The notes: generated from the sequence alone by a model not told the origin. Counted from the first letter of the stretch, positions 3,001-38,282 are shown. The stretch is 64,000 nucleotides of DNA from Naegleria gruberi (GCA_000004985.1 GG738889.1), one strand, 5' to 3'. Program-made: numbers and translations.

Positions 3001-5305
3001 ATCAAATGGCAGAAGTTCCCCATGTTTTGAACATTTTCAAAAATAACCTTTCGAAAAATGTTGTGGGAAAGATCTATCATGAGATGAATGAGAAGAATGA
3101 CGATGATGCCACAACTCACCTTCCAAAAACTTCATTGACCAGACCTAATAATTTATTCTTTCTTTATGGAGTTTTGGTTATAGTATCATTGATACTTGTT
3201 GGTGGTCTTATTCTCATTGAATCGAATGTTAATTGTACTGATTCCATTCAAACTTCACTAAATATCAAACATGGAACATCTGTTCTCAGAGTTATTCACA
3301 GAGCAAGTTTCAGAGTTGGAGAATATTTTGCTTATTTTGGTCTACCAAAAACCCATCTCAACAGTGATTACATGACCACCACAGCAGAGCTTGATGGATT
3401 TTTAACAGATATCAAATCCCTGATGGCTCAATTGTTTACTGATTGGACAGCTTTAGTTTACGGTTCTGGTGGATCTGATGTTAGTGTTGGTAAATATTCA
3501 ACAATTGACAGATTAATTCAAGGAGTATCTTCTTGCAGTGATAATTCCACAATGGATGATACAGAATTAGTGGATTTGTGGAAAAACTGTTATGGATTGG
3601 AAAGAATGATTTCAACCTTTACTACTGACGTTTCCAAACTAAACGAACAGGTATACAATCAAAATTATGTGAAGAATTTTGCAAATTTCTTAAATGGATT
3701 TTTGGATATCTTTGTTCAGACAAATATTCTTTCAGACCACTTGATCAAATTCTTGGATTTATTTGTAGAAAATTCATCTTCACCTAATTTTGAGATTACT
3801 GGTGTATTTGGTGCATTGTTTTGCTTGGTTTGCATCTTTTTGTTCTATTCAATGTTTAATACATTGCAAAATAATCATGCTCAATTGATGTGTTTGAGAA
3901 ATATGTTAAATTATGTTCCAGTTGATGCCTTGGATTCGAATGAAGTGGTTAGAAACTTTATTCTTTACAATGCCATTCCAAGTCCATTCTCCAAGGTCTT
4001 TAAGAGTAAGACCGAGAATCCAACTGATGAAAACTCAAAGGTGAGAAGTGTTTTGAATTCTTCTGTTGAGGGAGCCTTCATTGCAGATGAAAATGGTTTT
4101 GTAGAGCTGATTAATCCAGCAGCTCAAAATATTTTCGGATTCCAACAACAATCTGATGTGGTTGGTACTCCTTTCATTAACATATTCGATACTAAGGATC
4201 ATGAACACATCAAAAAGATTATTCAAACCATGAAGGATAGTATGAAATTGTCAAATCACAAAAATGGAGAAGTTGCTGAGGTGGATTGTGTAAGAAAGAA
4301 TGGAACACAATTCCCAGCTATGGTTAATATGTTTATTGTTATTTTTGATAATTCACCTAACTTGGTTTGTTTCTTGAAAGATGTCACATCAGAAAAGAAG
4401 CATAATGCTATAATTGCAGAAGAGAAGGCAAAATCTGATAGATTATTGAGAAATATTCTACCAGAGTCTGTTGCTGCTCGTTTGAAATCGGGTGATACTT
4501 TTATTGCTGAAAAGTTTGCAGATATTACTTGTTTCTTTAGTGATATGTAAGTATTCAAGTATCAATTTTTATTCGAATGATTTTTAATTATTTTCATAGG
4601 GTTGGATTTACAAATCTATCATCAGGATTGAATCCAAATGAATTGGTAGGCATGTTGAATACAATTGTTAATGGATTTGATGCCTTGACTGATAAATATC
4701 AATTGGAAAAGATTAAGACTATTGGAGATGCCTATTTCGTAAGTAATTTCAATCTCTTCTCATAATTTCTAACACAATATATTTCTATCATAGGCTGTTG
4801 GTGGTATTGGAAATACTCAATCAGATCACCCTGAGAGAACTCTTAGATTTGCAATTTCAACCTTTGATGTGATTAAGGATTTCAATATGAAAAATCCAAA
4901 TACTCAAATTAATATCAGATGTGGAATCAATACTGGTGGTTGTGTTGCTGGTGTAATTGGTACGAAGAAGTTTGCATATGATTTGTGGGGTGTAAGTTGT
5001 CAATTTATTTTACTTTTATTTGAATGATTCAGGATACTATTAATGTTGCTTCAAGAATGGAATCAAATTCAAAACCAGGCCGTATTCAAATATCACGATC
5101 TACTTTTGAAAGAGTTCATGATTTGAAATTTGATTTTGAAGAAAGAAGATTGGATATTAAAGGAAAAGGCCTTTGTGCTTGCTATTTGCTTCACCAAAAA
5201 CATCACGAGAATCCAATAATTGAAAAGAAAGTAGAGGACCCATCCCCTCACATGTCTAGTTCAGTTTCTGCAACTACGATTGCCAGTACAAATGGAACCA
5301 ATTAA
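1..5305 (+). CDS. Multi-pass membrane PAS-domain class III nucleotidyl (predicted adenylyl) cyclase, paralog 1. It has 4 exons: up to 18..4546, 4600..4738, 4794..4991 and 5033..5305. The 5' end may lie upstream of the window.
   Basis: A long ORF runs from 18 to 4546. It contains an N-terminal cluster of hydrophobic helices, further TM segments in the middle, and a PAS-like fold (SVLNSSVEGAFIADENGFVELINPAAQNIFGF...). It then has the cyclase signalling helix and catalytic motifs: LPESVAARLKSGDTFIAEKFADITCFFSDM|VGFT, KIKTIGDAYF|AVGG, DLWG|DTINVASRMES. Three introns of 53, 55 and 41 nt (4547..4599, 4739..4793, 4992..5032) have GTAAGT donors and TAG/CAG acceptors and restore the frame exactly. The stop is TAA at 5303..5305. 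The ORF crosses the N-gap 431..748, so the frame there is unverified. There is no in-frame stop upstream within the window. Confidence 0.85.
431..748. other. Assembly gap of 318 N inside the cyclase-1 coding region.
   Basis: A literal run of n. Its length is a multiple of 3, so the ORF track reads through it as X. Confidence 0.99.
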
Positions 5306-5310
5306 ATTAT

Positions 5311-6582
5311 TTACTGGTCTGTCAATTTTTGGATTGCTTGTTTGAGCTCTTTGATTTCGGCATTATTTTCGTTTGTCTTGTTAATCAGAGTCTTGATGGT
5401 TTGCATCAAAGACATTACCAGTTCTTGTTGTTGGCTTAACTGAAATTCTAAAAACTTATTCTCCTGTTTACATTGTTCAATATCTTCTCTCTGCTGTTCA
5501 ATCATGGAAATGAGTGTCAAGTGATCTTCCACTTCTTCTGTTGTGTTGTAATTTCTTGGTTGTTGCTGATTGTATTGTACACTATTTTGTCTTTCTGTGG
5601 TATTAAAAACCGATTCACTCTTATTTACACTATTTGACGAGGAAGAAGGTAAGCCTATCATTAATTCCTCTTGACCTATTTCTTCTAATAGATTTTCCAA
5701 AGCAATTTGGATTCCTCTGGTTGTTCTATAGATGGAGTAGTTCATTATCCTTTCAACATATTTCCTGATATTTTGTTGGTTATTTTCATTGGAACCTGTT
5801 TCTTGTGGCTCAGAAAATAAATAACACTGTTTCGAATCATCCACACTCATTGCATAAGATTTAATCAATTCGAAACATATTTGTGCAGCCAAATCAATAA
5901 GAGCCGAATCTTCACCATCATATTTTTCCAATAATTCCACAAGCCATTCCTTTCTGTACCTATAAATCAATCGCCACTGATCTAAATCTCTTGTCAGATT
6001 TGAACACTCGACCAGAATATCTTCACACAAAGTTAAATCCACAATACTCGAATCAAACGAATGTCTATTTCTTGCAATAATATCAAACAATTGATAAGGT
6101 TTTTGAATTCCAATCAAATACTGTCCATAACAATTCAAAACAGAACCTATCGTTACCTCCTTCAAAATATTAAAAGCAAATAACCAATCCACAATATTGT
6201 AAAAATCCTCATTCTCCTCCGAAGAAGATGCAGAACATTCACTCTTACTTGCTAAAGGTAACAAGTATTGCAAGTAGAGTGCATAATTTTCCAAATTTAC
6301 ATCATTCATAAAACAAGATTCATCATCATCAGCATCTCGTACAATAACACTCTTCAATAATTTCATTCCGAGATTATAAATTTGCTCAACGCTATTTTCC
6401 GAGTCATTATTGTCTTGTTGTTTAATTAAATTGGAAAATTCATTAGAAAATTGATTCCACAACAAATTGGCCAATGCATAATCTTCAGATTCAATAGCTA
6501 ATTTAATTTGATTTTCTAATGAATTTTCAACCGATTGTATTTCTTCTTGTGATGGTGGTTGAATAAGTTCAACTAAAGCCAT
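5311..6582 (-). CDS. Hypothetical protein of 423 aa with an acidic N-terminal half and a C-terminal coiled coil. It is a single exon.
   Basis: The ORF is uninterrupted, with ATG at 6582..6580 and TAA at 5313..5311. The C-terminus is heptad-like (...EQCKQENKFLEFQLSQQQELVMSLMQTIKTLINKTNENNAEIKELKQAIQKLTDQ). I recognised no known domain. Confidence 0.6.
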   Translation of the reverse strand: MALVELIQPPSQEEIQSVENSLENQIKLAIESEDYALANLLWNQFSNEFSNLIKQQDNNDSENSVEQIYNLGMKLLKSVIVRDADDDESCFMNDVNLENYALYLQYLLPLASKSECSASSSEENEDFYNIVDWLFAFNILKEVTIGSVLNCYGQYLIGIQKPYQLFDIIARNRHSFDSSIVDLTLCEDILVECSNLTRDLDQWRLIYRYRKEWLVELLEKYDGEDSALIDLAAQICFELIKSYAMSVDDSKQCYLFSEPQETGSNENNQQNIRKYVERIMNYSIYRTTRGIQIALENLLEEIGQEELMIGLPSSSSNSVNKSESVFNTTERQNSVQYNQQQPRNYNTTEEVEDHLTLISMIEQQREDIEQCKQENKFLEFQLSQQQELVMSLMQTIKTLINKTNENNAEIKELKQAIQKLTDQ

Positions 6583-6618
6583 TTTTTAATTATTATTATT
6601 TATTGAGTAAGCAACAGT

Positions 6619-8069
6619 TTACAACTTGTTCAAGATCTTATCAGCAGCCTTTTGCAAACGGTTAGTCTTGAGGTCTCTCTTTTCCAGCAATTCTCTCTTT
6701 CCTTGCATCTTCATCTTGGCTCTATCTCTACAACAGCAGCAGAAGATACAGAAACCAAGGATACAAGCAAAGACGGCACAAACAACAATGACAAGAATGG
6801 AAACACCAACAGCAATATAAATACCATTTTCAGCAATAACAGTCAAAAGATAGAATGGATCAACACTACACTTTCCAGAATCAGATTCAGCATATGGATT
6901 GTAAACGTAGGCCTTTGGATTTGTACAACCAGTAGCACATTCTTCACCAGTACAGGCGATTCTAGATCTCAAAGTGGCAACATCAGAAGCTGCAGGTGGT
7001 TCGAAAGAAACAGTCTTAAGACTTGGCTAATTTAAAATTAATTGAAAAGTTCAAATCAAAACAACTTACCAAATAGAATGGAACTGGAGTACCAAGTTGA
7101 ACGCTCTTGGCAATGTTGGCCTTCAAAGGATCCTTTGGAATAACATATTGTTCAGTATTTTGGACAACTGGAGCAACAAAGTCCAAAACCTTACTTCTAA
7201 TTTCAGACATGGCAGTTTCAATTGAACGAGCCCCAGATGGACACCAAGCTGGATAAGCAGTAGTGTCAGTACATGTTGAACTTCCTCCAAAGTTATCGAA
7301 TTTGAAACCATCTTCAGAGTAGAATCTACTACAAGTGTACTTGTAACTAGAAGCATCACTGCTACAATCGCAAGTTGAAAGGAGGGTTTGACAGTGGTCA
7401 ATATTCATAAAGTGTTCAGAACAGGATCCGAGCTTAGTGAAAAGATCTGGCAACTTTGGAACAATACATGTAAGCAAACTATAATTTTCAATTGAGAGAG
7501 TCTTTGTTTGACATGATTTTCCGTAACTATCAATAACACACAAGCCAGAGTTTGCACAACAAAAGCCACTACATGACTTTCCAATTTCAGCAAGATAGGA
7601 CAAGTAATTATTAGCAACACAACTAATATAACCATTCTTTGGGAAAGCATTTGCACAATAAGAATACTTCAACTTTTCAATACAGGATGGACAACTTGTA
7701 ACACCCTTTCCAAGCAAATAGGCTTGCATACTGTTGAAGGAATCTATACAGATCATTATATTCATCACATCATCATATTGAAAACCTACCTTCAAGGAAC
7801 TTATCCATATATTCAGCATAGGTAGAGTATGTTCCGTTTCCTGTAACGATTGGTTTTGAGAAGAAAGCCTTATCGGTATATCTTCCGTTCATCATTGAAC
7901 AGAAAGTAAGATTTGAAATTATTGTTTCTCCACAATGCAATTGATCACCCATACTAGCAACCAAATTTTTACATTGACCCTTAACGAGTGGTATATTATT
8001 AATCAAGGCTAATAAAACAATAACCGCAACAGCGAAAATTTTCAATGCCCTCATTGGAATTTGATTCAT
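6619..8069 (-). CDS. Cys-rich type I membrane glycoprotein of about 453 aa. It has 3 exons: 8069..7790, 7743..7070 and 7026..6619.
   Basis: It has a signal peptide (MNQIPMRALKIFAVAVIVLLALINNIPLVKG) and an ectodomain with about 40 Cys. A single TM helix (IYIAVGVSILVIVVCAVFACILGFCIF) is followed by a CCCC juxtamembrane motif and a short basic tail. The introns are 46 nt (7744..7789, GTAGGT...TAG) and 43 nt (7027..7069, GTAAGT...TAG), with phases that restore the frame. Confidence 0.7.
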
Positions 8070-8367
8070 TTTTTTAAGGTTCCTTTTTGAATTTTATAAA
8101 AAATAAAAAGTTCTTTCCCGCCTTAATAATGAACCACCCTCGCTCTATTTTGCTTCATCTCTTCTTAGATGGAAGGTTTTCCGAATAGGAACTCAATAAG
8201 AAGAAGAGAATGATTTGTATTTGATATTACTATTATATTTAAAATGATTATAATTACAATTTGCAAAATCTTACTTTTCCTTCTTGCTTCCAAGATGTTA
8301 AGATTCTAAAGATCAATTTGATGGTGATGCTAATCAAAATAATGAAATTTGAATATTATTATTCTTA

Positions 8368-9423
8368 TTACTTCTTCTTATTCAAATAGAATAAGGCACT
8401 TCCTACAGCTGGATCCACTCTTGGTTTTTCAATAATTTGAATCAAGTCTCCAAAACTCTCCTTCAATTTCTCAATTAATCCCTCAGCAACAATTGAATTT
8501 TCATGAGTGAGAATACTTCCACAGAATACCAATGAAAACTTTTCCGATCCATTTGTGAAATTCAATTTAGTTGCAGTGGTTTTCACTAAATGAAACAAAT
8601 CATTGACCATTTGTTGAATAATCTTCTTTGAGACAGCATCATCAGATTCACTAATGGCCTTGAAAGCAAGTGGTGCAAATTGAGCAATTCTACTCCATTC
8701 TGTATTCTTGTAAATATATGGAATTAAATTACTCAAATTCTTTCCATCATATGCATCTCCTAAATGAATTTTCAATTCATCCTTAACCAATTGAGTAAGA
8801 ACAGTTTGTTCTCCATATTCATCCTCACAATCAACTGCACTTAACAAGACTTGAGAGCCAAGCCAGAATCCACTTCCTCTATCACCCAACAATGGTCCCC
8901 ATCCTCCAGTTCTCTTATAATTTTGACCATCATCATTGGTTCCGAGACAAATCGATCCAGTACCTGCAATCAAACATATCACATGATGCAAACTACCCAA
9001 TGTTCCACTACAGATAGCAGCTACAGCATCATTGAATATGTGAATTTCAGGATATTTGTTGTTATTTTCTTCGCAATTTGATGATGATGATGATAAAGGA
9101 ATGTTAAATAATTCACAAATCCATGATCTCACTTCAGCAATATCATCTGGACGATCTACACCACTCAATCCCAAACAGACAGCAGAAACTCTTTCCAATT
9201 GTTGTTCTTGTGCTTCAGATGAACAACACTCTGCCAATACTTGTCTAATACCATCAAGAATGACTTGTTTAGCTTTATCAGCTCCAACACTATTCTTATT
9301 GGAAGATGGACAGTGAGCTGTTGAGAGGATGGCTTGTGTGGAATTGTCGAGAGCTACGATGGTGGTGCCTGTTGATCCGCCATCAATGCCAATGGTGATG
9401 TTTCTTGTTGTTGATGATGACAT
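8368..9423 (-). CDS. N-acetylglucosamine kinase-like sugar kinase of the BadF/BadG/BcrA/BcrD (ASKHA) ATPase family, 351 aa, single exon.
   Basis: The ORF starts with the phosphate-1 motif ITIGIDGGSTGTT, shows an ASKHA-fold motif pattern (GGWGPLLGDRGSG) and ends in TAA. The family call rests on recognising the motifs, not on a database search. Confidence 0.65.
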   Translation of the reverse strand: MSSSTTRNITIGIDGGSTGTTIVALDNSTQAILSTAHCPSSNKNSVGADKAKQVILDGIRQVLAECCSSEAQEQQLERVSAVCLGLSGVDRPDDIAEVRSWICELFNIPLSSSSSNCEENNNKYPEIHIFNDAVAAICSGTLGSLHHVICLIAGTGSICLGTNDDGQNYKRTGGWGPLLGDRGSGFWLGSQVLLSAVDCEDEYGEQTVLTQLVKDELKIHLGDAYDGKNLSNLIPYIYKNTEWSRIAQFAPLAFKAISESDDAVSKKIIQQMVNDLFHLVKTTATKLNFTNGSEKFSLVFCGSILTHENSIVAEGLIEKLKESFGDLIQIIEKPRVDPAVGSALFYLNKKK

Positions 9424-9493
9424 TTTTTTATTGTTTGCTTTCGGAGATTCGGATTAAAACTTTAGGTTGACTGTGTGAAAGATTTTTAATAAG

Positions 9494-9640
9494 TGATTGT
9501 TTGAAGAAGCAAATTCTATTCTTCAATATTTCTCAAATGTTATTTTCCATTCAATGAATTTCTTTTCATTTCTCTTGATTTTCCTTCCAACTAATGGGAC
9601 GATTGTTATTGAAGAAGCAAATCCCATTCTTCAACCTTTT
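9494..9640. repeat. Imperfect direct repeat of about 38 nt: copy A at 9494..9533 in the 3' UTR and copy B at 9600..9640 covering the last codons and stop of the kinase.
   Basis: The two copies are gattgtttgaagaagcaaattctattcttcaa and gattgttattgaagaagcaaatcccattcttcaa, about 85% identical and about 105 nt apart. Confidence 0.6.
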
Positions 9641-12600
9641 TCAATATCACATCAATAGAAGGTCGTTTACCTGGCTCATGACTCCACATCTGGCGAATCA
9701 CTTTTGTCATTTCAAAAATCAATTCATGGTGAATTACTTGTTCCTTATCAAGAAATTCCTCACACCATTTCTTACACTCTTCACAAGTTGAGAATGGAAT
9801 GATTGGCCTCAAATTCTCCTCACAAACACTCTTATGGAAGTGATACGAACTACTAAATGGTGTTGGTTTGGTGATTTTCAACTTTTTGAGAACGTTTGGA
9901 TCTGAGCTATGGTAAGGTTCAATAATTTCGAATAATAATTGCCACATAATGATGGCCAAACTGTAGATATCAATAGAACGGGCGTCCTCTCTCTCAATTT
10001 CACCAGAGAAAAGCTCCGGAGCCATAAATGAGCTGGTTCCAATCTGACTGGTAATTGCTGAAATTGTGTGAGAACAAAAAGCTCGTCCTAATCCAAAATC
10101 ACACAGTTTGGCAGTTCCACTTTTATCGAGAAGGATATTGGCTGGTTTCAAATCTCTATTCCACAAATGAAAGATTATTTTAGGTGAAATTTAGTATTAA
10201 TACATACCTGTGGACAATGAAATTCGGTTCCAAATGATGCAAATAATAAATTCCACTCACAATGTTCCTCAATATTGCCAATTTTTCATTGAGAGTGCAT
10301 TTGGAATAGCCACGTTGCATGGATGCAATCATTGCCTCTAAACTCTTATCCATGCACTCCATGGCAATGAATCTCTTTGTTGGTGTCGATGAAACACCAT
10401 AGAAATTGATAATATTTGGATGCCTTAATTTGCTTAATAAAATTGCTTCCACTTTGAAATCATTTTCTGAAATACTCAAATTATTCAAATCGAATACCTT
10501 GACTGCAATTGTCATTCCATTGAATTTGGTTGCAAAAACAGAACCCATTCCACCTTCTCCGAGTCTCTTGATTGGTTTGTCCATATTGAGTTGTTCTATT
10601 GGAATGATGAATTTATCTGCCTCTTCCACATAGTAAGAACTAGATCCCATACTTGATTCATAATGGTCCAACAATCTTTCATCTAAAACCAGATCAGTTT
10701 CAGTCAGTTTCTTATTCTTTCGTTTTACAGAAATATACGAAATAAAGATAATGAAACAAATGGCAGTAACGATGAGTAAAACAATGGCAGATGAGAGTCC
10801 CAATCCGAGGGCAATCGTGTTGATACTACAATCCTTTCCAAAGTAGGAAGATTGACAAAGACACTCATCCTGTTTTACACATGTTCCATGTCCTGAGCAA
10901 GCACTTGATCCTGATTGACCAAAACAAATAGCAACCCCACAATCTTTTCCTGTATATCCACTATTACAAACACAATTATCTGGTGCTGTACAAGATCCAT
11001 TTCCATGTGAGCAAACTTCCACAGATGTCTTTGGATAATTAAAGCAAATTGGTAATTGACAGTTATTGCCAAAAAAACCTTGATTGCAAGAACATTGATT
11101 AATATCGAAACAATTTCCGTTTCCACTACACACTGATTCTGAAATATTTGCTGGTATTCCAAAACATATTGGAATACACATTGTCAAATCTCTACTCAAA
11201 AGGTAACCCTCTCTACAAAATGGTGTCAGTTGTCTCACGACATTTTGAGTAGAATCTGATAAGTAAATCGATCCAGAACTAGGGGAAATTGTAAATCCTT
11301 GTGGAGATGCCAAATAATCACTCGTTGCCAAAATTTCATTCAAATCCAATTCTTTCACAGTTGAATTTCCAGCAATTGTGTAAACTAGATTAATTCCATT
11401 TCGTCTACTTATTTTCCTAATCATTGCATTCAGTGAATCAATGAAAATAATATCCACAAAATCAGGAGGTACCAATTTCACTATAGTTGGATAATTAAGC
11501 TCTGCCTGTTCAGCAATTCCATCTATGTATCCAGGATTTCCACTGCCTGCAATGGTGGAAATTGATCCATTCACATGAATCATTCTAATTCTATTATTAT
11601 TCGAATCGGCGAATATAATTTCATTATCCAAATTGATGGCAATTCCGGTTGGCTGAGCCAAAAGTGCAGACTTAGCATCATTTGAATCTCCATTAAAACC
11701 ATATCCCTTTCCTGCAATTGTTGAAATTATTCCATTTCTATCAATCTTTCTAATCTTGTTATTTCCAAAATCGGTCACATAAATTTCTCCATTGAGAGGA
11801 GAAACAGAAACCGCATAAGGTTTAATTGAAGCATAGGATGCCAATCCCTTATCACCTATTCCACCAACTATAGTCTTGACGATACCAGTTTTAAAATTGT
11901 AAAGTTTCACCAAATTACTGTAAGTATCAGCAATTGCCAGATATTGAGTTCCACCACTTGGTAACTGGAGATATCTGACGCTTGAAGGATAGCTGAGCTT
12001 GGATTTGATTCCCAATCCCTCCTCAAATTCTCCACCTCCAATCAATGTATCAGCAATTCCAGTAGAAATCGAGACAGTCCTAATCCTATTATTATTAGTA
12101 TCAGCTATAAACATGGTATTCTGTGAAATGGTTATACTTTTAGGGAGATAGAGTTCCATATTTCTAACAAATCCACCGTCACCTCCATTACCAATTTCAC
12201 CTGTGCCTGCATAGGTATCTGTAACACCATTAATAGTGGCATATCGAATTCTGTGATTACCCGTATCGGCAATGCAAATCATTTGGCTATCTACCACGAC
12301 AACATCCTCAGGAAAGCTCAATTGAGTTTCAGTTGATAAAATATTATCACCATTGAATCCTTCATGTCCAGAACCAGCAACTGTCTTTACCATTTGAGAT
12401 GTACTACTGCCCAAGTAAATTGATCTAATTCTATGATTTCTAGAGTCGGCAACCAGTAAAACTTTATCAGCAGAGTCAATATGAATTCCTTTTGGCTATA
12501 GAGTTTGTAAATATTGCAAATTATCAAAAATTTCAAACTTACACTATTAAATGTTGTGTTCAACAGTGTGTTATCTCCATTAAAACCCTTCACTGTTGGT

Positions 12601-14393
12601 ATTCCAGCAAATAGTTCCAATTTTCTAGTTCTAATATTCACTCGCCACAAACAATGTTTTTCACTATCTGAAAAATAAACATAATTACTTATATAGGCAA
12701 TGCCAACTGGAGTGCCAATACCACTGTCCTTTGAAACCAGTGTTTGGGATATTCCAGTACTAACATCTACCATTAAAACTCTATAATTCTTTGTGTCTGA
12801 AACAAATAGAGTGACATTCTTTTCGAGATTGTAATTCACTACTGCAACACAAACTCCTTGTGGACTGTTGAGAACTTCTGATAAACCATCAACCATTTGT
12901 GTATTGGTTGAATTAAAGAAGAATGATCCAGTCATTGGTTGAGATTCTAGAGTATTCAAATTGAATTTCACAAGAAAATTCGAAGCCCAATAGTTAATAT
13001 TATTAACTACGAGTAAGTTTGATTGGTGATCAGTGGTAATTGATATTGGATCAGTAAATATAGGAATCTTACTGTGTAATCCACGTTTCAAATCTAATAG
13101 AGAAGTGCTAATCCTTTCAGATATTCCACTCATAAATGAATATTTCAGTAAACGAGCTGATTGAGAATCAGAAATCAGCAATTCCTCTTCTCCATTCTTA
13201 TTCTTAATAATGATCAAATCTTTTGGTGATCTGAGACCAGTCATTGTTCCTCTGGTTTTTTCAGCAAAGGGAACCCTACTCGAGTAAATTGTTGAAATTA
13301 ATCCTGACCTTCTATCCACCATTCTCATTTCATCTGAAACATCCACAAAAACAATTGCTCCTCCAATGGAAATTGTGACTGATATTGCATTGGTTATTTG
13401 AGCTTCAATGGCTAGCCCTCCATCGCCCAATGATCCTGTGTTTGTTCCCTTAATGACATGTTCGAAAACTCCCATTTCGAGTGAATTCACACTTTCATCC
13501 TGATTGTAAACAGTTGTAAATTTCTTAGATGTCACTGCTTGAGGTCCAGAAAAATAAAAAGTTTCTTCCACAATCGTATTAAGTCCATTTTGATATGTTT
13601 TCAAAGAGGTAACATCAAAAGCAAAAGACATACTATTCCTACAGTCAAAAACAGTACGTGTTCCATTTCTGAATATTCTTTCACCTTTTGATTGAAGTAA
13701 AACTTGCCATTCATCTCTTTCATTAATGATAATTCCTTGAATTGACTCTGAAAAAGTCCTGTACAGAGATACATAACCATTCCTTAACAAGAATACATTG
13801 TAATCTTGTGTGAAATAAACATCAATTTCATCCATATTCGAATACTTGTTAATTGGAACGGAGATTGTTTGGGGATAAATAGAAATTGATGTGGCATTCA
13901 CTTTTTCTGTGGAATCCAAAAATTTACATTGACCATCTCCAGCCAAAGTTGTGATCATTCCATCTGCAGTGTTTAGTCTCTTCAAAAAACAATCCGAATA
14001 GAAATAAATTAAATCAATTGCTCTAGTTGACGACGATTGAAAGGAAACAACCTGAAACTTGGGCCAAACATTGGACCGAACAAAACTGATATCACCTGTT
14101 TCAATGTTCAATTTTGCAAGTTGATATCCTTCACTACCTGTGTTTGATGTGAAATAAATAATGTTTGGATCAACTTTTGAGAACATTGCCCTCGCAGCAA
14201 CGCCAGACAGCTGGTTCTTCTTCTCCAAATATCCAATAACAGGTTTTGATTTATATTGCACAAGTCTCTTCCGAACTAAACTTTCCGTTGTTGGTATTTC
14301 TTGTTGACAAAAAACTGGTGATGTGAAAAACAATGTCACGATTAAAAAACACATCAAAACAGATGCCTCTTTACTGAAAGATAATGATGACAT
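9606..14393 (-). CDS. Receptor protein kinase with an NHL-repeat beta-propeller ectodomain, EGF-like Cys-rich modules, one TM helix and a TKL-like kinase domain, about 1562 aa. It has 3 exons: 14393..12543, 12495..10208 and 10155..9606.
   Basis: A signal peptide (MSSLSFSKEASVLMCFLIVTLFFTSPVFCQQE) is followed by multiple NHL-type repeats (…YVTDFGNNKIRKI…, …IFADSNNNRIRMI…, …IADTNNNRIRTV…). Next come EGF-like modules (CSGNGNCFDINQCSCNQGFFGNNC…CVCNSGYTGKDC…CLCQSSYFGKDC), a TM helix (GLSSAIVLLIVTAICFIIFISYI) and the kinase. The kinase carries GEGGMGSVF, AVKV, HRDLKPANILL (with the HR|D codon split by an intron), DFGLG and APE. The introns are 47 nt (12496..12542, GTAAGT..TAG) and 52 nt (10156..10207, GTATGT..TAG). 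Confidence 0.85.
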
Positions 14394-14413
14394 TTTTTTC
14401 ACTCTCTTACAAG

Positions 14414-17400
14414 TTATTTATTATTGGAAGGATTGTTAGGGGTATTCAAGTCTGAAAGTTTTCCAATGAAAGATGAACGAAGTCTACCAGCAGTGTTTGT
14501 CAATTTTCCTGCAATGGTAGCACCTCTTTCTCTGAGTGATGGTGTAGATAATCCATTGTTTGGTTGACCTGTGGTTGGTCGTTGGTTTGGTGGTAAAACT
14601 GGAAGTGTTGGGAGATTCTTTTGTGGGATGGTTGGCAATGGTTTTCTATCATGGTCATCAGTAGGAGAACTAGCTCCATTATTATTGGCTAGGAGTTTGT
14701 CTTTACCAGAAAAGCTCAACACTGTTTCAAGTTTGATTTCACCTGTTTGAGCAGGAGAAACTTCATCTTGAGGTTCGGTAAGTTTGTCTTGCAATAGTTT
14801 GGTTTGCAACTCCAAATTTTGCATTTGAAGGTTTTGGTTTTGTTGTTTTAACTCCGCCAACTGCACATACAAATCAGAAATGATATTCTTCAATTCTGCA
14901 TTGACTAATTGTTGGTCATTAATTTCACCTCTGACGATTTGAGCTGATTCACCCTTCTTTTCCATTTTGAGAGCTCTCTCAGTTTGTTGAATTTGTCTCT
15001 TTACAAGTACATTATACTCCTTCTCAACCTTTCCCTTGTCGATTTGAGTCTTTTGTAAATCTTGTTGTAATTGAATGATATGTTCACGAAGAGTTCTATG
15101 AAGAGCATTTGTTTCCTCTTGAGCCTTCTTGAACTTTTTCTTTTCTTCCTTTAGTTTAAAGTCCAAATCGGTAATCTTTCTATCTCTGAGATCACATTCA
15201 GATTGTAATTGTTTGGTCAAGTGCTTTTGTTGGTTCAGCAATTTACGTGTTTCACTCTCCTGAGTAAGGTAAGTGGAGATACTTTGCTCACGGTTTTCCT
15301 GCTCCTTTCTAAAAGATTGGATATATTCATGGAGTTGACTGAATTCAACTCTGAGAGAAAATTCTTCTTCAGCAGCAACACGAAGAGAATTCTTGATAAT
15401 TTCGAATTGCTTTTGCATGCCTCTCAACTCACGATTTTGATGTTCAATACTTTCATCTGTTAAAACTCTATTAACAATTTCTTCATTCTTCTTATCATCA
15501 ACTTCTTGCTTCCTTGTTTCAAAGAAATCTCTGCCAATATCTGTTTGAACACTCATGTCAATACGCATATTTTTGATACGGAGTTCTTCAATTACTCTAG
15601 CACTTAATCTAATCCAGTCTGCAAGTTGGTTAGGAGTTTCTGGATAGATGAAAAGTCTCTTTTCATTACCATTAATGATGGCCAAAACTTCCTTTGGCAT
15701 TGGTTGATTTTCTTCAATTGGTACTTGTGTCTTGATATACTCTGTTGTATCAGACAAAGCCATATGATAGAACAAGTACTTATCAATGGCATTTGTAGAA
15801 TCCTTTACAAAGCTTTGAGGTGGAAGTTTTTGAGTGAGACACAAAATTTCACAAGTATCTAACAAGACACAGTGAATTCTCTTGAAAGTATTTGAACTGT
15901 GAGTGAGTACTTTACAAGGTCCTTCAATAAGAATATTCTTCTTATTGTCATCAACTTTTGGTGTGTTGGTAACAGCTTGGGGTTGTTTAGAAGGAGTCTT
16001 GATAGATGATTGTTGGTTTTGCATATCGGCCAATACTTCTGTAAGGTGAATCTTACTCTTGATGGCTTCATTCAAAGCTTCTGTCTTATCATTGAGTTCA
16101 GAGTGCATATTATTGAAAAGTCTTGTCAAACTATAATGTTCAATAAGAGTCTTTGTGAAGGATCTTTGTGATTCTGCTATTAAATCTCCCAAATTTTGGA
16201 ATTTTTTGATAATCAAGAGAGTCTTCTTATCAGCAAACATGGCAAAATAACCTTGTAACATATCTGCCCATTGTTTGATATCCTTGAATTGGCTTCTCAA
16301 GAGCTTGGAAATTACATAAACCATCTCTGGTTTGATTTCAATACGCAAAGAGTTCTCTGAATGTCCAAGGGAAGGATCCATAGCTTGGAACCAAATACCT
16401 CTCTTACTCAATGGCTTGGTATAATCATTGATAAGTCCAATCATCCAATCAACTGGTGCCGAGGTGAGTGGAACAACTTCCAAATTGTCAAATGTTGAAG
16501 TCTTTGGAGCACTGTTAATATCATCCAATGACTTGAAAGGAACACCAGTCTTAATCAAACAGTGAACATTTGTACCAGTACCATAGAGCTTGAGTTCATA
16601 TTCATGAGATCTATTACTAAAGCTTTGAACAGGTTGTTTTGATATTCTGTCCAAATGTTCAATACGGTAGAGACTATCAAACATTGGTAGGGTAGCACCC
16701 TCCATGATACTTCTTGTTGGCAAGTGAGTGACCCCCAATGTCTTGATTTCCACACCAACAGCATTTGGTCCTTGACCTTTTCCGATGACATAAACTTCAA
16801 CCTCCTCAAGAGAAATGTCGAACAACATTGGATAGAAAGTTTGGTGAGTGGTGGCCAAGAATTCTTGAACTGTCTTCTTGTCCTCTTCCTCCTCCGTAAG
16901 TTCTTGTTCCTCTGATTGTTCTTTAACAACTTGTGGTTTCTTCTTTGTATCTTTGATCTTTTTAGCAACAGTCTTGATGACTGGAATTAATTCAGTCTTG
17001 ATGGTTGGAATGATTTCTTCCTTAATGACTGGAATAATTTCAGCAGTACTTTCTTTGGTTTTTCTCTCAATTTTGGCAGGTTCTATGGTACGAATTGTTG
17101 GTGTGGAAATGCCTGTTGCTATGGAAATAGGTTCTGGCTTTTTCTCTGACGAATCAACTTCCACAGAAACAAATGAGTCAATTTCTTTCATTGTCAATGT
17201 TAGAGTTGGTGTTTCCTTTGGAGTATCGAAGGCCGATTCTGAAGTAATAATCTCAAATGAGTCATCACCTTCTTCGGTATTCATTTCTTCATCAGTCAAT
17301 GGTTCTTCATCCTCTTCATCCTTTTCTGAAGGTGAAGTAGCAGCCGATTTCGACTCTGCTTCCTGTCCAGCTACTTGTGGTAAAGAAGATTCTTGTTGTT

Positions 17401-20400
17401 GCTGTGTTTGTTCTTCTTGGTTTTCCTCTAAAACTTCAACTGAGTCTTTTGGTGAAAGAGACTCTTCAACCTTTGGTGAAGTAATTCCTGTTTCGCTCTC
17501 CAAAAAGTCAGTAGGCAATTGTGAAACCAATTCCTCTTCTTCCTCTTGAGCCTTCTTCTTTTCAGGCAAGTACTTTTCACGAATCTTACTGTATGTTCTC
17601 TTCACTGTTCTATTCATAATTTCCATAGGTGATACATCAAATGCATTTTCTCTGGAATTTAAGAAATGAAGAACATGGTATGCAGTGTCAGTATTTAAAC
17701 CAATGTGAAGTCCGTTTGCTTTCAAAATAAGTCTTGGATTTCTCAAAAAATTTGAATTTCTGTGAGGTTCCATCTGTGGTTGGTCACTAGGAGTTGCTGG
17801 TGACTTTTTAGTATCAGCATTCAAATCCATTGGATGTTCATATCTGAAAACTATCATGTGACCAGGAGATTTGGTTTTATCATACATTGGGAATACATAT
17901 GGAGACTTTTGTGAAATGCTCGAATGCATATGGCTTACCATGATCGAAGAAGGATTTTCACCATTTTGTGGAGAAGTTATTTCAAAGTGAGCAATCTTAC
18001 TCTTCACCGTTAAAAAGTTGCTAACCTTTGTAGTATTGTTGGTTTCTACTAAAACCTCAGCTCCACTCAAAACCATAGTCAATAATTTTGCATCCAAAGA
18101 AGGGTCATACTGTGAGGAGAAGAATGCCTCCATTGAGGTGGCAGATGAAGCAGTAATTGAAACTTCAAGCTTGGCAATCTTGGACATGAACATGAGAGGG
18201 ATGAGACGAATATCTTCCTTTGGAGCTTCAATAATAGGTTGAGGTTGATTTGGTTTTTTGAAAAGATCAATATTATGGTCATGGAATGATTTGGTACTTT
18301 GAATTAGGAAGGACTTGATCATTGGAGGATCATCAACAAATGTACGTATGAATTCCAACAATAAAATCACTTGAGATTGGTTCATGTGGAAATTCAAATT
18401 TTCAATAAAGGTAAGAAGTACAATTTTTGGTAACTTGGCATGGTAATCTGACAAGGTTTCATCATTGATACCCAAATCAAAAGTCAAGGAAAGAGGTTCC
18501 ATAATTCTCTGTGGTGGTGAGTGAATGGAAGGCATGATTTGAATCAAAAAGTCGGATATTTTGACCTTGAACTTGTTTGGCAAAACTTCCCATAGAGAAG
18601 AATGTAACGAACTGTAATCTGAACCACTTGATGGGAATGTATCAATTGATTTTGGAGCAAAGAGTGAATCCTTATCCTTCTTTCCCCATTCCGATTGTTT
18701 TCTAATTCTAGGATCACTAGTGATGATCAATTCTCTATTATCAATACAAACAATTTCATTCACATCGGTCATTAGATCTGGTGAGTAATTTGAAGGAATA
18801 AAAATTTTTGGACTTCTAATTTCCACAAGGAAGGAGAAGCTCTTCTCATCTCCTCCACTTTCTTCATCTGAATTGTAATCAGAATTTGATGAATTGATAG
18901 AGTTACTGGATGGTGAAACTTTCAACTTTTCTGCACTTTTAGTTGTGGATGCCATAGAGCTGAGTGAACCAGTTGGATTAAGAGGTTTACCAAGTTGTAT
19001 GATACTATCCACAGGAGGTTTGACGGACATGTCTGGTAAACATTCTAGAGAAAATTCCAATAATCTAATAAGTCTACGAACATCGAGCATGATATTGATA
19101 GGATTCACTCTACATTCTAAAATGAATTCCATTCCTTCACCCTTAACAAACTTTAACCTGACCATTTCTTTCCCTTCCTCAAAGAATTTTCTTTTAATGA
19201 CAGAGTTTGGTCGGTATACTCTATCAGTTTTAGTATAGTCAGGATAGTATCTGTGTGTTGATAAAAATTCAGGCCAGACGTCCAAATTGACTGTATAACT
19301 GTGTGATCCTGTAACTGTAGGACTCACTATTTTTGTAGTTTCTGCATGATGACTCACAAAATCATCCTCTTCAAACTCTTCTTTAAATATTTGAGGTTGA
19401 ATAATATAATTTTCATCTTTCAATTCATTATCTGTAGTATTGTGATTTCCAATGAGTTCCAAATCCAAGAAAGAAGCTGCTGTTTCTGATAAATTTCCTT
19501 GTCCCTTGAAACTTGTAGTAATTTCCTTAAATTGGATGAAAGGAATTCCGAGTTGAATATTCTTATCCTCAGGTGTATCCTCTGGCATGACCAAGCCTAA
19601 CTGGAATCCCAACATTTCAAAATAGTACCCAAGTACACGTCTATTTTCTCTTCCAACAACTTGTTTAGGTTGATTATTCTCATCACGACTATACAAAAAT
19701 GTCATTGAAAACTCGTTTAAATTTACAACTATACACTTTCTGACAGTGTCTTGTGGAGTTGAGGATTTCTTAATCATATCATCTGTAATAATTTCCATAT
19801 CATTTAAATCTCCATCCATTTCTGCCAATTCCTCTTCAAGTTTGGCTTCATCATCCGAATCCTCCTCATCACCATTATTATCAACAAAGAATTTAGAAAT
19901 TGCTTTAGATTGTCTAGCTGTTGTTGTTGTGTTGGTCATTGATGTTTTGCTAGATTTTGATGAAAGACTAGATTGACTGCCTGATCTTTTTGTTCTCTTT
20001 ACATATGTTGTTAGTGGATCTTTTGGTTGAATTAAATCCTGTCTTGCTGATGCTGATTTAAAAGCTAACAAGACTCTGATAAGTGCTTTAATATCGTCCT
20101 GTCTTAGTGTTATTGCTATTTTAGGAAGAATAATTTCAGCATTGATACTCAGTAGTGATGATTGTTTACCCACTGTTACTGCTCGCTTTTTCATTGTTAT
20201 AAAGATATTACAAGTTATATCATTTAAAAGCTTGATAGGGTCTGAGTTTGGTAAGAAACTATTTGCTGATGGTGTACTCTTTATACCTGTGCTAGAAAAG
20301 ACTGAACTAGGTATGAGAGAGATGGATATTGATTCAATAGTACCCATACGATGCACCCAAACAAAAGGATTTTTATCAACCTTTGGGATGGCTTGTTTTA

Positions 20401-20977
20401 AATCTGGTACAGGTTTAAATCTATAATCTGTTGTTTGAAGGGTAAATCCCTTGACTAGAATTTGCAATACATGAGGTGTATATGGTCCAATTTGTGTTGA
20501 AGGTATTGGCCCGAGAGTTTTAATATTAATTTCAACTCTATTTACCACAATCTTGAGACCATCAATAATTCTATCCACAAATCCATACTTGCTGGTACCT
20601 GTTTTTGATGAAGAAGAACCTTCATCACCCTGAGATCCTCTGTTCTTTTCCAGAAAATCCTTCAGTGGTGTCTTTTTAACAAAAGGTTTTGTTGGTTCCT
20701 CCAAGTTGATAACCAACTTATCGAGAGTGATGATGAGAGGATCATTTGTTAAACGTGTAAGACCTGGTAAACGTATGGAGAGTTGATTGACGTGAGCATC
20801 CATTACTTGAAGAAAATCAATAGGTAAAACCTCTTGAATAACTTGTTCATTGACGAATAAATTATTCAGAGACCCTGATCCCTTCATAAACGATAGAGAC
20901 AAGGCATCCTTTCCCCAGTTTTTAATAAAGACGGAAAGATATTTTCCCAACACACTAGAAATCAATCTATCAGCCAT
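14414..20977 (-). CDS. Chorein-N bridge-like lipid-transfer protein resembling BLTP3/UHRF1BP1/SHIP164, 2186 aa, single exon.
   Basis: The ORF is uninterrupted over 6.5 kb. Its N-terminus (MADRLISSVLGKYLSVFIKNWGKDALSLSFMKGSGSLNNLFVNEQVIQEVLP…LSIRLPGLTRLTNDPLIITLDKLVINLEEP) matches the chorein-N pattern of UHRF1BP1/SHIP164, from my memory of that family. It also has an acidic Glu/Asp-rich segment and a long C-terminal coiled coil (…ELKQQNQNLQMQNLELQTKLLQDKL…). Start is ATG 20977..20975 and stop is TAA 14416..14414. Confidence 0.75.
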   Translation of the reverse strand: MADRLISSVLGKYLSVFIKNWGKDALSLSFMKGSGSLNNLFVNEQVIQEVLPIDFLQVMDAHVNQLSIRLPGLTRLTNDPLIITLDKLVINLEEPTKPFVKKTPLKDFLEKNRGSQGDEGSSSSKTGTSKYGFVDRIIDGLKIVVNRVEINIKTLGPIPSTQIGPYTPHVLQILVKGFTLQTTDYRFKPVPDLKQAIPKVDKNPFVWVHRMGTIESISISLIPSSVFSSTGIKSTPSANSFLPNSDPIKLLNDITCNIFITMKKRAVTVGKQSSLLSINAEIILPKIAITLRQDDIKALIRVLLAFKSASARQDLIQPKDPLTTYVKRTKRSGSQSSLSSKSSKTSMTNTTTTARQSKAISKFFVDNNGDEEDSDDEAKLEEELAEMDGDLNDMEIITDDMIKKSSTPQDTVRKCIVVNLNEFSMTFLYSRDENNQPKQVVGRENRRVLGYYFEMLGFQLGLVMPEDTPEDKNIQLGIPFIQFKEITTSFKGQGNLSETAASFLDLELIGNHNTTDNELKDENYIIQPQIFKEEFEEDDFVSHHAETTKIVSPTVTGSHSYTVNLDVWPEFLSTHRYYPDYTKTDRVYRPNSVIKRKFFEEGKEMVRLKFVKGEGMEFILECRVNPINIMLDVRRLIRLLEFSLECLPDMSVKPPVDSIIQLGKPLNPTGSLSSMASTTKSAEKLKVSPSSNSINSSNSDYNSDEESGGDEKSFSFLVEIRSPKIFIPSNYSPDLMTDVNEIVCIDNRELIITSDPRIRKQSEWGKKDKDSLFAPKSIDTFPSSGSDYSSLHSSLWEVLPNKFKVKISDFLIQIMPSIHSPPQRIMEPLSLTFDLGINDETLSDYHAKLPKIVLLTFIENLNFHMNQSQVILLLEFIRTFVDDPPMIKSFLIQSTKSFHDHNIDLFKKPNQPQPIIEAPKEDIRLIPLMFMSKIAKLEVSITASSATSMEAFFSSQYDPSLDAKLLTMVLSGAEVLVETNNTTKVSNFLTVKSKIAHFEITSPQNGENPSSIMVSHMHSSISQKSPYVFPMYDKTKSPGHMIVFRYEHPMDLNADTKKSPATPSDQPQMEPHRNSNFLRNPRLILKANGLHIGLNTDTAYHVLHFLNSRENAFDVSPMEIMNRTVKRTYSKIREKYLPEKKKAQEEEEELVSQLPTDFLESETGITSPKVEESLSPKDSVEVLEENQEEQTQQQQESSLPQVAGQEAESKSAATSPSEKDEEDEEPLTDEEMNTEEGDDSFEIITSESAFDTPKETPTLTLTMKEIDSFVSVEVDSSEKKPEPISIATGISTPTIRTIEPAKIERKTKESTAEIIPVIKEEIIPTIKTELIPVIKTVAKKIKDTKKKPQVVKEQSEEQELTEEEEDKKTVQEFLATTHQTFYPMLFDISLEEVEVYVIGKGQGPNAVGVEIKTLGVTHLPTRSIMEGATLPMFDSLYRIEHLDRISKQPVQSFSNRSHEYELKLYGTGTNVHCLIKTGVPFKSLDDINSAPKTSTFDNLEVVPLTSAPVDWMIGLINDYTKPLSKRGIWFQAMDPSLGHSENSLRIEIKPEMVYVISKLLRSQFKDIKQWADMLQGYFAMFADKKTLLIIKKFQNLGDLIAESQRSFTKTLIEHYSLTRLFNNMHSELNDKTEALNEAIKSKIHLTEVLADMQNQQSSIKTPSKQPQAVTNTPKVDDNKKNILIEGPCKVLTHSSNTFKRIHCVLLDTCEILCLTQKLPPQSFVKDSTNAIDKYLFYHMALSDTTEYIKTQVPIEENQPMPKEVLAIINGNEKRLFIYPETPNQLADWIRLSARVIEELRIKNMRIDMSVQTDIGRDFFETRKQEVDDKKNEEIVNRVLTDESIEHQNRELRGMQKQFEIIKNSLRVAAEEEFSLRVEFSQLHEYIQSFRKEQENREQSISTYLTQESETRKLLNQQKHLTKQLQSECDLRDRKITDLDFKLKEEKKKFKKAQEETNALHRTLREHIIQLQQDLQKTQIDKGKVEKEYNVLVKRQIQQTERALKMEKKGESAQIVRGEINDQQLVNAELKNIISDLYVQLAELKQQNQNLQMQNLELQTKLLQDKLTEPQDEVSPAQTGEIKLETVLSFSGKDKLLANNNGASSPTDDHDRKPLPTIPQKNLPTLPVLPPNQRPTTGQPNNGLSTPSLRERGATIAGKLTNTAGRLRSSFIGKLSDLNTPNNPSNNK

Positions 20978-21034
20978 CTTGTTTAAATTTTAATTATCAA
21001 ACGTGGGTCGTGTTGTTGTTGTTGATTTGTAGTG

Positions 21035-21052
21035 ATGATGATGATGATAACG
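21035..21052. repeat. Trinucleotide microsatellite (ATG)5 to (ATG)6 in the divergent intergenic region.
   Basis: The run is gtgatgatgatgatgata. Confidence 0.7.
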
Positions 21053-21364
21053 ACTCGAAAGAGAATAGTTCTTCCTTTTTATCGGCTGATTCTTCAATTA
21101 TTCCTTTTCTTGTTGTTGGAGTGTTGTGTTGTTTGGTATGGAGTTTTTTTTCTATTGTTTTCTGAACAACAGCAACTCCACCTCATCAATCGAAGGTGCT
21201 TGGAATCGAACACGAATATTTGAGTGTTTGAAAAGAACAGCTTGTTATTTAAGGTTACATCCTTGATGAATGCAAGATAACTCTTTGATAAATTCTTATT
21301 AGTACAATATTTGTCAATATTCCATACTATAAAGTAAGATGATTGATTTGTGAAAGAAGAAAAA

Positions 21365-22330: not shown

Positions 22331-22370
22331 TTTCCCTTTCAGCTCGATAAATAGTGAATGTGTCAATTCA

Positions 22371-37068: not shown

Positions 37069-38282
37069 TGCTGGTGTTTTGTTGTTGGTAGCAGCTACGA
37101 ACAACAATGGATTAGTAGAGAGGCTAGAGATATGTGGTGTTGAGGACATTTTTTTTAAAGATTTGAGAATGTCTAAGGGTACAGTAATAGTGGCGGGAAA
37201 TATCCTGTTCCATTGATCAAGCCAACCTCTAGCTGTTTTGGGGCTACTTGGAGCGTTCTCGTTTGTTAATAGAAGCTTCAAAAAAGTTGTTTGTTTGCGC
37301 TTATGTGCCTGGCAGTAGATTACATCCAAAACGAGACGAGCTGGTACAAGCTCCTCTACTGACATAAATGACAATAAGGTTCAAATATGGATGATTGGTC
37401 ATCTTTGCCATTAAGCACATACGCAATTATTGGTATTATTATTATTTAATATCAATCAGTATTAAATAATGAAAAATGTCAAAATATAGAGAGGATAGGA
37501 TCAGATTGAAAATTAATCTTGTATTGAAATTTAAATATTGAATTTAAATTTTCAAGTCACTACACCGAGCCACTACAAACTGGGGTCCATATTTGAAGAG
37601 AAGGGCAACGCATGGAAAGCAGATAATTTCAGTTTGGCTTGCCGTCTATAGAGATGGTTGATGTTGATGTTGAATTGGTAGTAGTGGTGGAGGTTGAATT
37701 ATCACTCGTTGAATTATCAATACTCTGCAGTAAATTGAATAGCAAGAGGGGAATATTGGATGATGAAATTTCTTCTGCCATGATAATTGATGATAGGATT
37801 GATGATGGTAATAAGTGTGTTCTCTTTTTCTCTCGGAGGTTAATAGTGTGGATGGATTTTACAGGATTGTTTGGTGATGAACCTTCAGAGATGTTGAAAT
37901 TGTTTTTTTCTAACGGTTTGCTGTTTCATAAAGGTTTTTTGATTTTCCACATGTCAGCAAAACCCTTGATTTGCTAAATGACTTGTCAACCATTGTCGCA
38001 AGATTCTGAGCACTCAAATAGAATGGTTTCCTCATTCAAGTTCAAAAGTTCGCTCGTGTGGAAATTGTTTGTGTTAATTCCTTAGTCATATAAAACTTTA
38101 AATTTATTATTGAGACTAAACTATCCTACTATTTGATATTCGGTTGTATTGGTTGCTTGATCAAATTGCCACTATTCAATTCCATACTATTTTGAATTAT
38201 CTAAATTCAATCTCCATTATTATTGAACTGGTCAAAACTGTTTCATCATTTAAATATTTCAGATGAAACTTGTTTAAATAAT

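Follow-up and report, generated by a model that had tools for sequence, protein, structure and literature searches.

Independently initiated, abutting transcription units as the favoured reading of a tightly packed five-gene array in Naegleria gruberi

How is a gene expressed when its start codon follows the stop codon of the preceding gene by only a few tens of nucleotides (nt)? The question is raised by a stretch of 64,000 nt of nuclear DNA from the free-living heterolobosean amoeba Naegleria gruberi (GCA_000004985.1 GG738889.1; the whole stretch is called the window below), in which five genes in a row lie on the minus strand between positions 5311 and 20977. From one coding sequence (CDS) to the next, the four tandem spacers within this run measured 20, 182, 298 and 36 nt in the direction of transcription. 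A reading made from the sequence alone (the sequence-only reading) had reasoned that the promoters of the downstream genes must overlap the upstream genes, or else that the genes are co-transcribed as polycistronic units with trans-splicing or internal initiation. We hold with moderate confidence that the five genes are independently initiated transcription units that abut or overlap one another, an ordinary form of gene-dense Naegleria packing, with start sites and mRNA ends that we infer from the DNA. For the two ultra-short pairs, tiny or overlapping promoters are more likely than operon-like co-transcription.

Independent initiation is supported because the lengths of the spacers are additive, because a head-to-head gene pair in related species has only 52 or 74 nt between its start codons, because unrelated gene pairs in the genus have ultra-short junctions too, and because the junctions themselves are not conserved.

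Gene models and start codons of the array

The features of the array and its flanks are listed by position in the window, with lengths of proteins in amino acids (aa) and open reading frames abbreviated as ORFs.

3..5305, plus strand: PAS-adenylate/guanylate cyclase gene, 5'-incomplete in the window and with an assembly gap inside; last exon 5033-5305
5306..5310, no strand: convergent stop gap of 5 nt, read from the sequence
5311..6582, minus strand: coiled-coil protein gene, 423-aa ORF; the public model has 351 aa from ATG 6369
6583..6618, minus strand: 36-nt stop-to-ATG spacer actgttgcttactcaataaataataataattaaaaa, with AATAAA at 6604..6599 and no AG dinucleotide
6619..8069, minus strand: Cys-rich type I membrane protein gene, 453 aa, three exons with introns 7744-7789 and 7027-7069; exact match to XP_002673718
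8070..8367, minus strand: 298-nt tandem spacer, read from the sequence
8368..9423, minus strand: N-acetylglucosamine (GlcNAc) kinase-like gene of the BadF/BadG/BcrA/BcrD ATPase family, 351 aa (Pfam, E=1.9e-33)
9424..9605, minus strand: 182-nt tandem spacer upstream of the GlcNAc kinase gene, holding ATTAAAAATCTTTCACAC at 9490..9473
9606..14393, minus strand: receptor kinase gene, 1562 aa, with signal peptide, NHL repeats, EGF repeats, transmembrane segment and protein kinase domain
14394..14413, minus strand: 20-nt stop-to-ATG spacer cttgtaagagagtgaaaaaa, containing AG dinucleotides
14414..20977, minus strand: BLTP3-like (chorein-N family) gene, single exon, 2187 aa; exact match to XP_002673721
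20978..21364, no strand: 387-nt divergent spacer common to the BLTP3-like gene and the plus-strand gene 21365-22330
22331..22370, no strand: convergent stop gap of 40 nt between the genes 21365-22330 (plus) and 22371-23654 (minus)

Base-by-base reading bore out all the coordinates that the sequence-only reading had given for this arrangement. The TAA stop codon of the BLTP3-like gene (14416..14414) is followed by the 20-nt spacer (14413..14394) and then by the kinase ATG at 14393, and the TAA of the Cys-rich gene (6621..6619) by the 36-nt spacer (6618..6583) and the ATG at 6582. The convergent stops lie 5 nt apart on the cyclase side (5303..5305 on the plus strand, 5311..5313 on the minus strand) and 40 nt apart on the other (22330 and 22371). 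The description of the array as a row of five minus-strand genes stood; its extremely short spacing holds for only two of the four tandem spacers (20 and 36 nt), the others being 182 and 298 nt. The start of the Cys-rich gene, earlier placed at 7819, was moved to 8069 after the junctions of its three exons had been read and the exact match to XP_002673718 found.

The 40-nt convergent gap at 22331..22370 was identical in a second N. gruberi strain. Two sequences of this strain (L004 and L005; ENA ERZ929261, PRJEB11402) were 99.3% and 97.2% identical to window positions 19997-23573 and 42489-43984, and three differences from the window were 3-nt indels. Their use as transcripts was rejected: they are genomic DNA and uninformative on RNA ends.

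Gene models were produced by a small exon-chaining predictor trained on long ORFs, which gave 24 genes in the window, with gene spans covering 86% of it. A first version of the predictor was rejected because it fused neighbouring genes via implausible long introns, and its replacement favours introns of the length observed. The 19 introns predicted in the window were uniformly short (40-94 nt), with GTA[AGT]GT donors and [TA]AG acceptors (e.g. 12496-12542, 10156-10207 and 7744-7789), and the cis-introns of N. gruberi had no polypyrimidine tract. Splice junctions in the kinase and Cys-rich genes were read directly from the sequence.

Gene identities were confirmed by Pfam and by exact matches to public N. 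gruberi proteins; in the exact-sequence look-up, 7 of the 10 submitted models (11 models counting the GlcNAc kinase) were identical to a public protein. The GlcNAc kinase was 100% identical over its 351 aa to a public 'predicted protein [Naegleria gruberi]', and its identity to orthologues was 61-63% in N. fowleri and N. lovaniensis and 52% in Willaertia magna. The receptor kinase matched NHL, TEN_NHL, EGF_2 and Pkinase in Pfam; two introns, of 47 nt (12496-12542) and 52 nt (10156-10207), divide its gene into three exons, and their removal rebuilds the HRDLKP catalytic motif. The match of the BLTP3-like protein to the Pfam profile BLTP3A_B (PF24917; 54.1 bits for a cut-off of 24, E=5.9e-15) covered residues 7-154 only, and 'BLTP3-like' is the fitting label because the remainder of the profile is unmatched. 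The spliced C-terminus of the flanking cyclase gene gave a full Guanylate_cyc domain (Pfam, E=7.8e-53).

The G+C content of the window was 30-38%. It contains two assembly gaps (runs of N) at 431-748, in the PAS-cyclase gene, and 32699-33165, in a 2372-aa gene at 27523-34641. Its two largest apparently gene-free stretches, 41384-42781 (1398 nt) and 56127-58051 (1925 nt), hold uncalled minus-strand ORFs at 41544-41930 (128 codons) and 56984-57418 (144 codons), and given these ORFs, small genes may be missing from the predicted set.

If the true downstream starts lay elsewhere, or if the upstream stops were spliced out, the spacers would be longer than they appear. The public coiled-coil model (351 aa) begins at an internal methionine, Met72 (ATG 6369), which gives an apparent spacer of 249 nt and keeps the 36-nt spacer hidden in the annotation; the 1562-aa kinase model, for its part, is identical to no public protein. 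However, residues 26-80 of the 423-aa ORF, which begin upstream of Met72, are matched by the N. fowleri and N. lovaniensis orthologues of the coiled-coil protein (E=4e-6 when the N-terminal piece is taken by itself), and Met1 (ATG 6582, with an in-frame TAA 3 nt upstream) is the sole methionine upstream of the aligned block. ATG 6582, the start chosen in the sequence-only reading, is therefore better than ATG 6369, and the public model looks 5'-truncated. An upstream exon carrying the missing N-terminal region of the coiled-coil protein was sought in the window and not found. The kinase ATG at 14393 held up as well, being the first ATG after an in-frame stop and having the signal peptide directly behind it; its context, gaaaaaaATG (AAAAAA-ATG), is typical of the genus. 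Of 72 Naegleria and Willaertia genes, 85% had A at position -3, and the stretch from -6 to -1 was A-rich; both downstream ATGs fit this pattern. Both upstream stops agree with the public annotation because the BLTP3-like and Cys-rich models are identical to public proteins, and the BLTP3-like C-terminus aligns with its orthologues to within 17 residues of the stop. An artefact of the gene models is largely refuted by these findings, and we consider it very unlikely.

Spacer lengths, strand runs and gene order in related species

Spacers in the window differed in length with the orientation of the genes around them. Divergent spacers ranged from 180 to 1925 nt (median 504), tandem spacers measured 20, 36, 182, 216, 298, 526, 552 and 785 nt (median 257), and convergent spacers 5, 40, 54, 77, 174, 184, 260 and 305 nt (median 125). 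When five more loci were pooled, the medians were 369, 264 and 120 nt for divergent, tandem and convergent spacers, respectively. The order divergent > tandem > convergent is what results if every gene has its own promoter and 3' ends are short. A crude additive model, in which a tandem spacer consists of half a divergent and half a convergent spacer, reproduced the tandem median (308 versus 264 nt). The 20- and 36-nt spacers are outliers within this picture. The spacers within the run (20, 182, 298 and 36 nt) compare with 216-785 nt for the other tandem spacers of the window, in a small sample chosen post hoc.

A pooled set of 33 tandem spacers was assembled from the window, the five annotated loci and a metagenomic contig. 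Five of them were 20-36 nt long, none fell between 37 and 87 nt, and the remainder measured 88-1831 nt; the empty range suggests a discrete class of ultra-short tandem junctions.

The run of same-strand genes is not unusual, because a run of at least five co-oriented genes among 24 randomly oriented ones has P = 0.54. The 24 genes of the window fall into 16 directons, the longest having five genes, and strand alternation was above random.

The order of genes and spacers around the orthologues of the BLTP3-like gene was as follows.

N. fowleri, on one strand: BLTP3, 221 nt, F-box/DUF4116, 255 nt, coiled-coil orthologue, 88 nt, OTU
N. lovaniensis: BLTP3, 264 nt, lactamase-B, 34 nt, DUF4116, 542 nt, metallopeptidase, 157 nt, coiled-coil, 30 nt, OTU, 365 nt, RGS
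Willaertia: BLTP3, 174 nt, aconitase
Metagenomic contig (L011), from a third Naegleria-like lineage: BLTP3, 36 nt, F-box/DUF4116

The BLTP3-like protein of the contig (ENA ERZ27315067, contig k141_767819) shares about 66% identity with each of its counterparts in N. gruberi, N. fowleri and N. lovaniensis, and the contig appears to represent a third, unsampled Naegleria-like lineage. Ultra-short tandem junctions are thus found repeatedly within the genus, each time between a different, unrelated pair (lactamase-B/DUF4116, 34 nt; coiled-coil/OTU, 30 nt; BLTP3/DUF4116, 36 nt), and each such junction ends in AAAAA-ATG. What is kept among N. gruberi, N. fowleri, N. lovaniensis, the contig and Willaertia is only the co-orientation of BLTP3 and coiled-coil genes; the intervening genes and all junctions differ. 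The lineage-specific genes between BLTP3 and coiled-coil have the same orientation in N. gruberi, N. fowleri and N. lovaniensis.

By this comparison, the BLTP3/kinase and Cys-rich/coiled-coil junctions of N. gruberi are species-specific and lie exactly at synteny breakpoints. The last 17 codons of the BLTP3-like gene are specific to N. gruberi and lie beyond the end common to N. fowleri, N. lovaniensis and the contig. Relative to N. fowleri and N. lovaniensis, the coiled-coil protein of N. gruberi is extended at its C-terminus by 21 residues, which mostly account for its closeness to the convergent cyclase gene. At its other end, where the N-terminus is replaced in N. gruberi, it is without about 95 residues common to N. 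fowleri (L006 10001-11434) and N. lovaniensis (L009 21991-23451). In our reading the junctions of N. gruberi are young, and they were tightened as ORF ends grew into the spacers.

Rearrangement of this kind could also have cost the downstream genes their promoters, leaving them silent or decaying. That both ultra-short junctions fall where synteny with N. fowleri and N. lovaniensis breaks is in line with such a loss, as is the coiled-coil gene being short of its N-terminal residues. However, the kinase frame is intact over 1562 codons and three exons, with HRDLKP and DFG motifs preserved, the coiled-coil gene retains an unbroken, conserved ORF (E=3.5e-40 to N. fowleri), and similar junctions lie upstream of conserved genes in other species. 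We give promoter loss very little probability.

The DUF4116 gene was found behind three upstream contexts: BLTP3 at 36 nt in the contig, lactamase-B at 34 nt in N. lovaniensis, and BLTP3 at 221 nt in N. fowleri. The N. fowleri spacer holds a 79-nt relic of the 3' end of lactamase-B (77% identity, E=6e-14; L006 7738-7816 versus L009 17766-17844), and the gene is intact in N. lovaniensis. The relic is the trace of a recent gene loss that left a stretch beside the downstream gene. As a mark of an embedded DUF4116 promoter, it is weakened by the contig, where DUF4116 follows BLTP3 by 36 nt with no relic.

The GlcNAc kinase gene has wholly different neighbours in N. fowleri and N. lovaniensis. Other NHL-repeat genes were seen nearby: a secreted NHL protein is encoded at 35427-37149 (minus strand) in the window, and in N. 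lovaniensis an NHL-EGF gene (L003 18673-20999) lies 7.7 kb from the GlcNAc kinase gene. These suggest a loose conservation of neighbourhood despite many local rearrangements.

A polycistronic unit resolved by spliced-leader (SL) trans-splicing, like those of Euglenozoa, would explain the array differently. Within Discoba, Heterolobosea and Euglenozoa are sister groups, five genes of the same strand do lie in a row, and AG dinucleotides are present in the 20-nt spacer. However, AG is missing from the 36-nt spacer of N. gruberi and the 34-nt spacer of N. lovaniensis (two of the five ultra-short spacers), so that an acceptor would fall inside the upstream CDS and destroy the upstream mRNA. The length of the run is ordinary, the window has 16 directons for 24 genes, and a published analysis did not find the genes of Heterolobosea arranged polycistronically. 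Rfam and tRNA scans of the 64-kb window gave no match, to an SL RNA or to any other Rfam family, and a search of a literature library found no report of SL trans-splicing for Naegleria. Ordinary cis-introns are common in the window. The missing polypyrimidine tracts upstream of the ATGs are uninformative, because N. gruberi cis-introns are without such tracts. We rate trans-splicing the least probable of the explanations weighed. The proposal of polycistronic units with trans-splicing is thus unsupported here, given 16 runs for 24 genes, the spacer hierarchy, the unconserved pairs and the 36-nt spacer without AG, and co-transcription is disfavoured in the array.

Promoter and mRNA-end signals

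The size of upstream DNA that a Naegleria gene needs can be judged from genes that diverge. In N. fowleri the genes for an FG-repeat protein and the GlcNAc kinase lie head to head with 52 nt between their ATGs (L001 9949-10000), and the same pair in N. lovaniensis has 74 nt between ATGs (L003 9927-10000). Both N-termini are conserved, in-frame stops lie just upstream, and 46-48 nt of the spacer are conserved between the species, which looks like a compact bidirectional promoter. Co-transcription is ruled out for genes that diverge, so a few tens of nucleotides of dedicated upstream DNA can be enough for a Naegleria gene to initiate. The pair bears on the size of dedicated non-coding DNA, not on the position of the start sites; any further signals may be tiny or sit inside a CDS.

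A 20-nt fragment of the conserved element (ATTAAAAAT(T)CTTTCA(T)CAC) was also present upstream of the N. gruberi GlcNAc kinase gene at 9490..9473. The local match between N. gruberi and N. lovaniensis had p ~0.03, and weakly suggests that the GlcNAc kinase gene may have brought its own promoter along inside the array. In published work, the promoter mark H3K4me3 (trimethylated lysine 4 of histone H3) is present at most N. gruberi genes.

Both short junctions carry AATAAA at or within 14 nt of the stop. At the BLTP3/kinase junction the hexamer (14422..14417) is formed by the last sense codons of the BLTP3-like gene (AAT AAA), directly before the stop; at the Cys-rich/coiled-coil junction it lies in the spacer (6604..6599). 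The canonical distance from AATAAA to the cleavage site is 10-30 nt, which would put the ends of the upstream mRNAs close to the downstream ATG. The tails of the upstream CDSs are free of ATG over the last 137 nt in the BLTP3-like gene (P ~0.04) and the last 84 nt in the Cys-rich gene (P ~0.13). A general depletion of upstream ATGs was dropped as an indicator: suggestive in N. gruberi, it is contradicted by the short junctions of N. lovaniensis, which have an ATG 31-35 nt upstream.

Under independent initiation, transcription of each downstream gene would begin at a very small A/T-rich core promoter located in the spacer, in the terminal portion of the upstream gene, or partly in each, and the upstream mRNA would be cleaved and polyadenylated in or just past the spacer. 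Neighbouring units would then abut or overlap by a few tens of bases, and the convergent pairs would end back to back or overlap in antisense. The geometric argument of the sequence-only reading is sound: spacers of 20 and 36 nt force the signals for mRNA end and start to overlap each other or the upstream CDS, unless these signals are extremely small.

Several observations weigh against independent initiation. The additive model expects 0.25% of tandem spacers to be 36 nt or shorter, and 5 of 33 were observed; this frequency of 15% is not unbiased, the pooled loci having been reached by following the genes of the array. The frequency of the class of about 20-36 nt is one point that the favoured reading does not explain, and a discrete class of this length could indicate a dedicated mechanism, read-through included. 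In both N. fowleri (L006) and N. lovaniensis (L009), seven genes of the orthologous region lie in a row on one strand, from BLTP3 through the coiled-coil gene to OTU and RGS. The three contexts of the DUF4116 gene fit a tiny promoter and read-through equally well. In 72 upstream regions, position-specific composition and 6/7-mer enrichment revealed no promoter motif beyond the A-run before the ATG, and the A-run at -6 to -1 may be merely translation-start context. No footprint of an embedded promoter was detected in the last 150 nt of both upstream CDSs, which were normal in coding potential and G+C. The enrichment of AATAAA near stops was only about 2-fold over A/T-rich controls.

Part of this evidence would be met by read-through co-transcription without trans-splicing, in which RNA polymerase II from the BLTP3-like or Cys-rich promoter would often run into the next gene. 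The downstream protein would then be made by reinitiation or internal entry on a bicistronic RNA, or from a cleaved precursor RNA. Read-through is favoured by the excess of 20-36-nt junctions, by a DUF4116 gene that functions behind three different upstream sequences, and by the embedded-promoter footprint not being found. An RNA covering the ATG-free tails of 137 and 84 nt would meet the downstream ATG without an upstream ATG, and in other eukaryotes polycistronic read-through transcripts coexist with independent ones (PMC4503453). However, the gene pairs are unconserved between species, and an ATG does precede the junction in the short junctions of N. lovaniensis. Head-to-head pairs show compact independent initiation, and the spacer hierarchy fits gene-level promoters, most genes carrying H3K4me3. 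Moreover, the upstream ORFs are long (2187 and 453 codons), and eukaryotic ribosomes reinitiate poorly after long ORFs. We consider read-through unlikely. Obligatory co-transcription of the pairs with junctions of about 20-36 nt, in which the downstream gene would have no promoter of its own and the RNA would then be resolved or internally translated, seems to us distinctly improbable.

Meaning and comparison with known systems

Read as independently initiated units, the array is one more example of compact eukaryotic genomes squeezing transcription signals into or against their neighbours. It also bears on the annotation of Naegleria, in which one public model is truncated, apparently on account of a true start that lies right against the gene next to it, and on expression constructs, for which very short upstream segments may suffice to drive a gene. 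If the ultra-short junctions were co-transcribed, this would be important, Heterolobosea being the closest outgroup to Euglenozoa. We know of no intermediate stage of the polycistronic, trans-spliced expression of Euglenozoa, and obligatory co-transcription, if true, would be a living intermediate toward trypanosome-style polycistronic expression in their sister lineage.

The array resembles the genomes of Euglenozoa (kinetoplastids, diplonemids and euglenids) in having same-strand neighbours with little room for promoters, in a sister lineage within Discoba. It differs from them in its short runs, its orientation that alternates above random, its heterogeneous spacers, its unconserved gene order and its two ultra-short spacers without AG. 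Euglenozoan units are same-strand clusters of tens to hundreds of genes, whereas the longest in the window has five. Long same-strand clusters with heavy-tailed directons, an acceptor AG before every ORF and conserved gene order, all traits of Euglenozoa, were absent here. A survey of 59 Discoba likewise gives Heterolobosea about 2 genes per directon, no heavy tail, and a ratio of inter- to intra-directon spacers of about 1.

Giardia, Trichomonas and Entamoeba have minimal promoters and very short untranslated regions. Naegleria is like them in its A/T-rich sequence directly before the ATG and in very small intergenic regions, the 52-nt region serving two genes in N. fowleri. The very small dedicated upstream DNA of minimal promoters was found here between verified ATGs (52 and 74 nt). 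Most Naegleria spacers, in contrast, are several hundred nucleotides long.

In Agaricomycetes, read-through polycistronic transcripts coexist with independent transcripts, as seen by long-read cDNA (Gordon et al. 2015, PMC4503453). The likeness lies in tandem genes that may be co-transcribed by failed termination, and a mixed outcome is plausible here; the fungal case rests on long-read cDNA.

Overlapping transcripts have been documented in compacted eukaryotic genomes, and those of microsporidia are reported to begin inside the gene upstream or to end inside the one downstream (PMC3629993, citing Williams et al. 2005 and Corradi et al. 2008). N. gruberi differs from such genomes in being free-living, with a 41-Mb genome, many introns, mostly ordinary spacers and few ultra-short ones, and the array is known from genomic sequence. 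It is like them in that stop and start, or stop and stop, can be separated by as little as a few to a few tens of bases, and the geometry is forced here as well: spacers of 20 and 36 nt between tandem genes, and of 5 and 40 nt between convergent ones, are too short for separate 3' and 5' signals.

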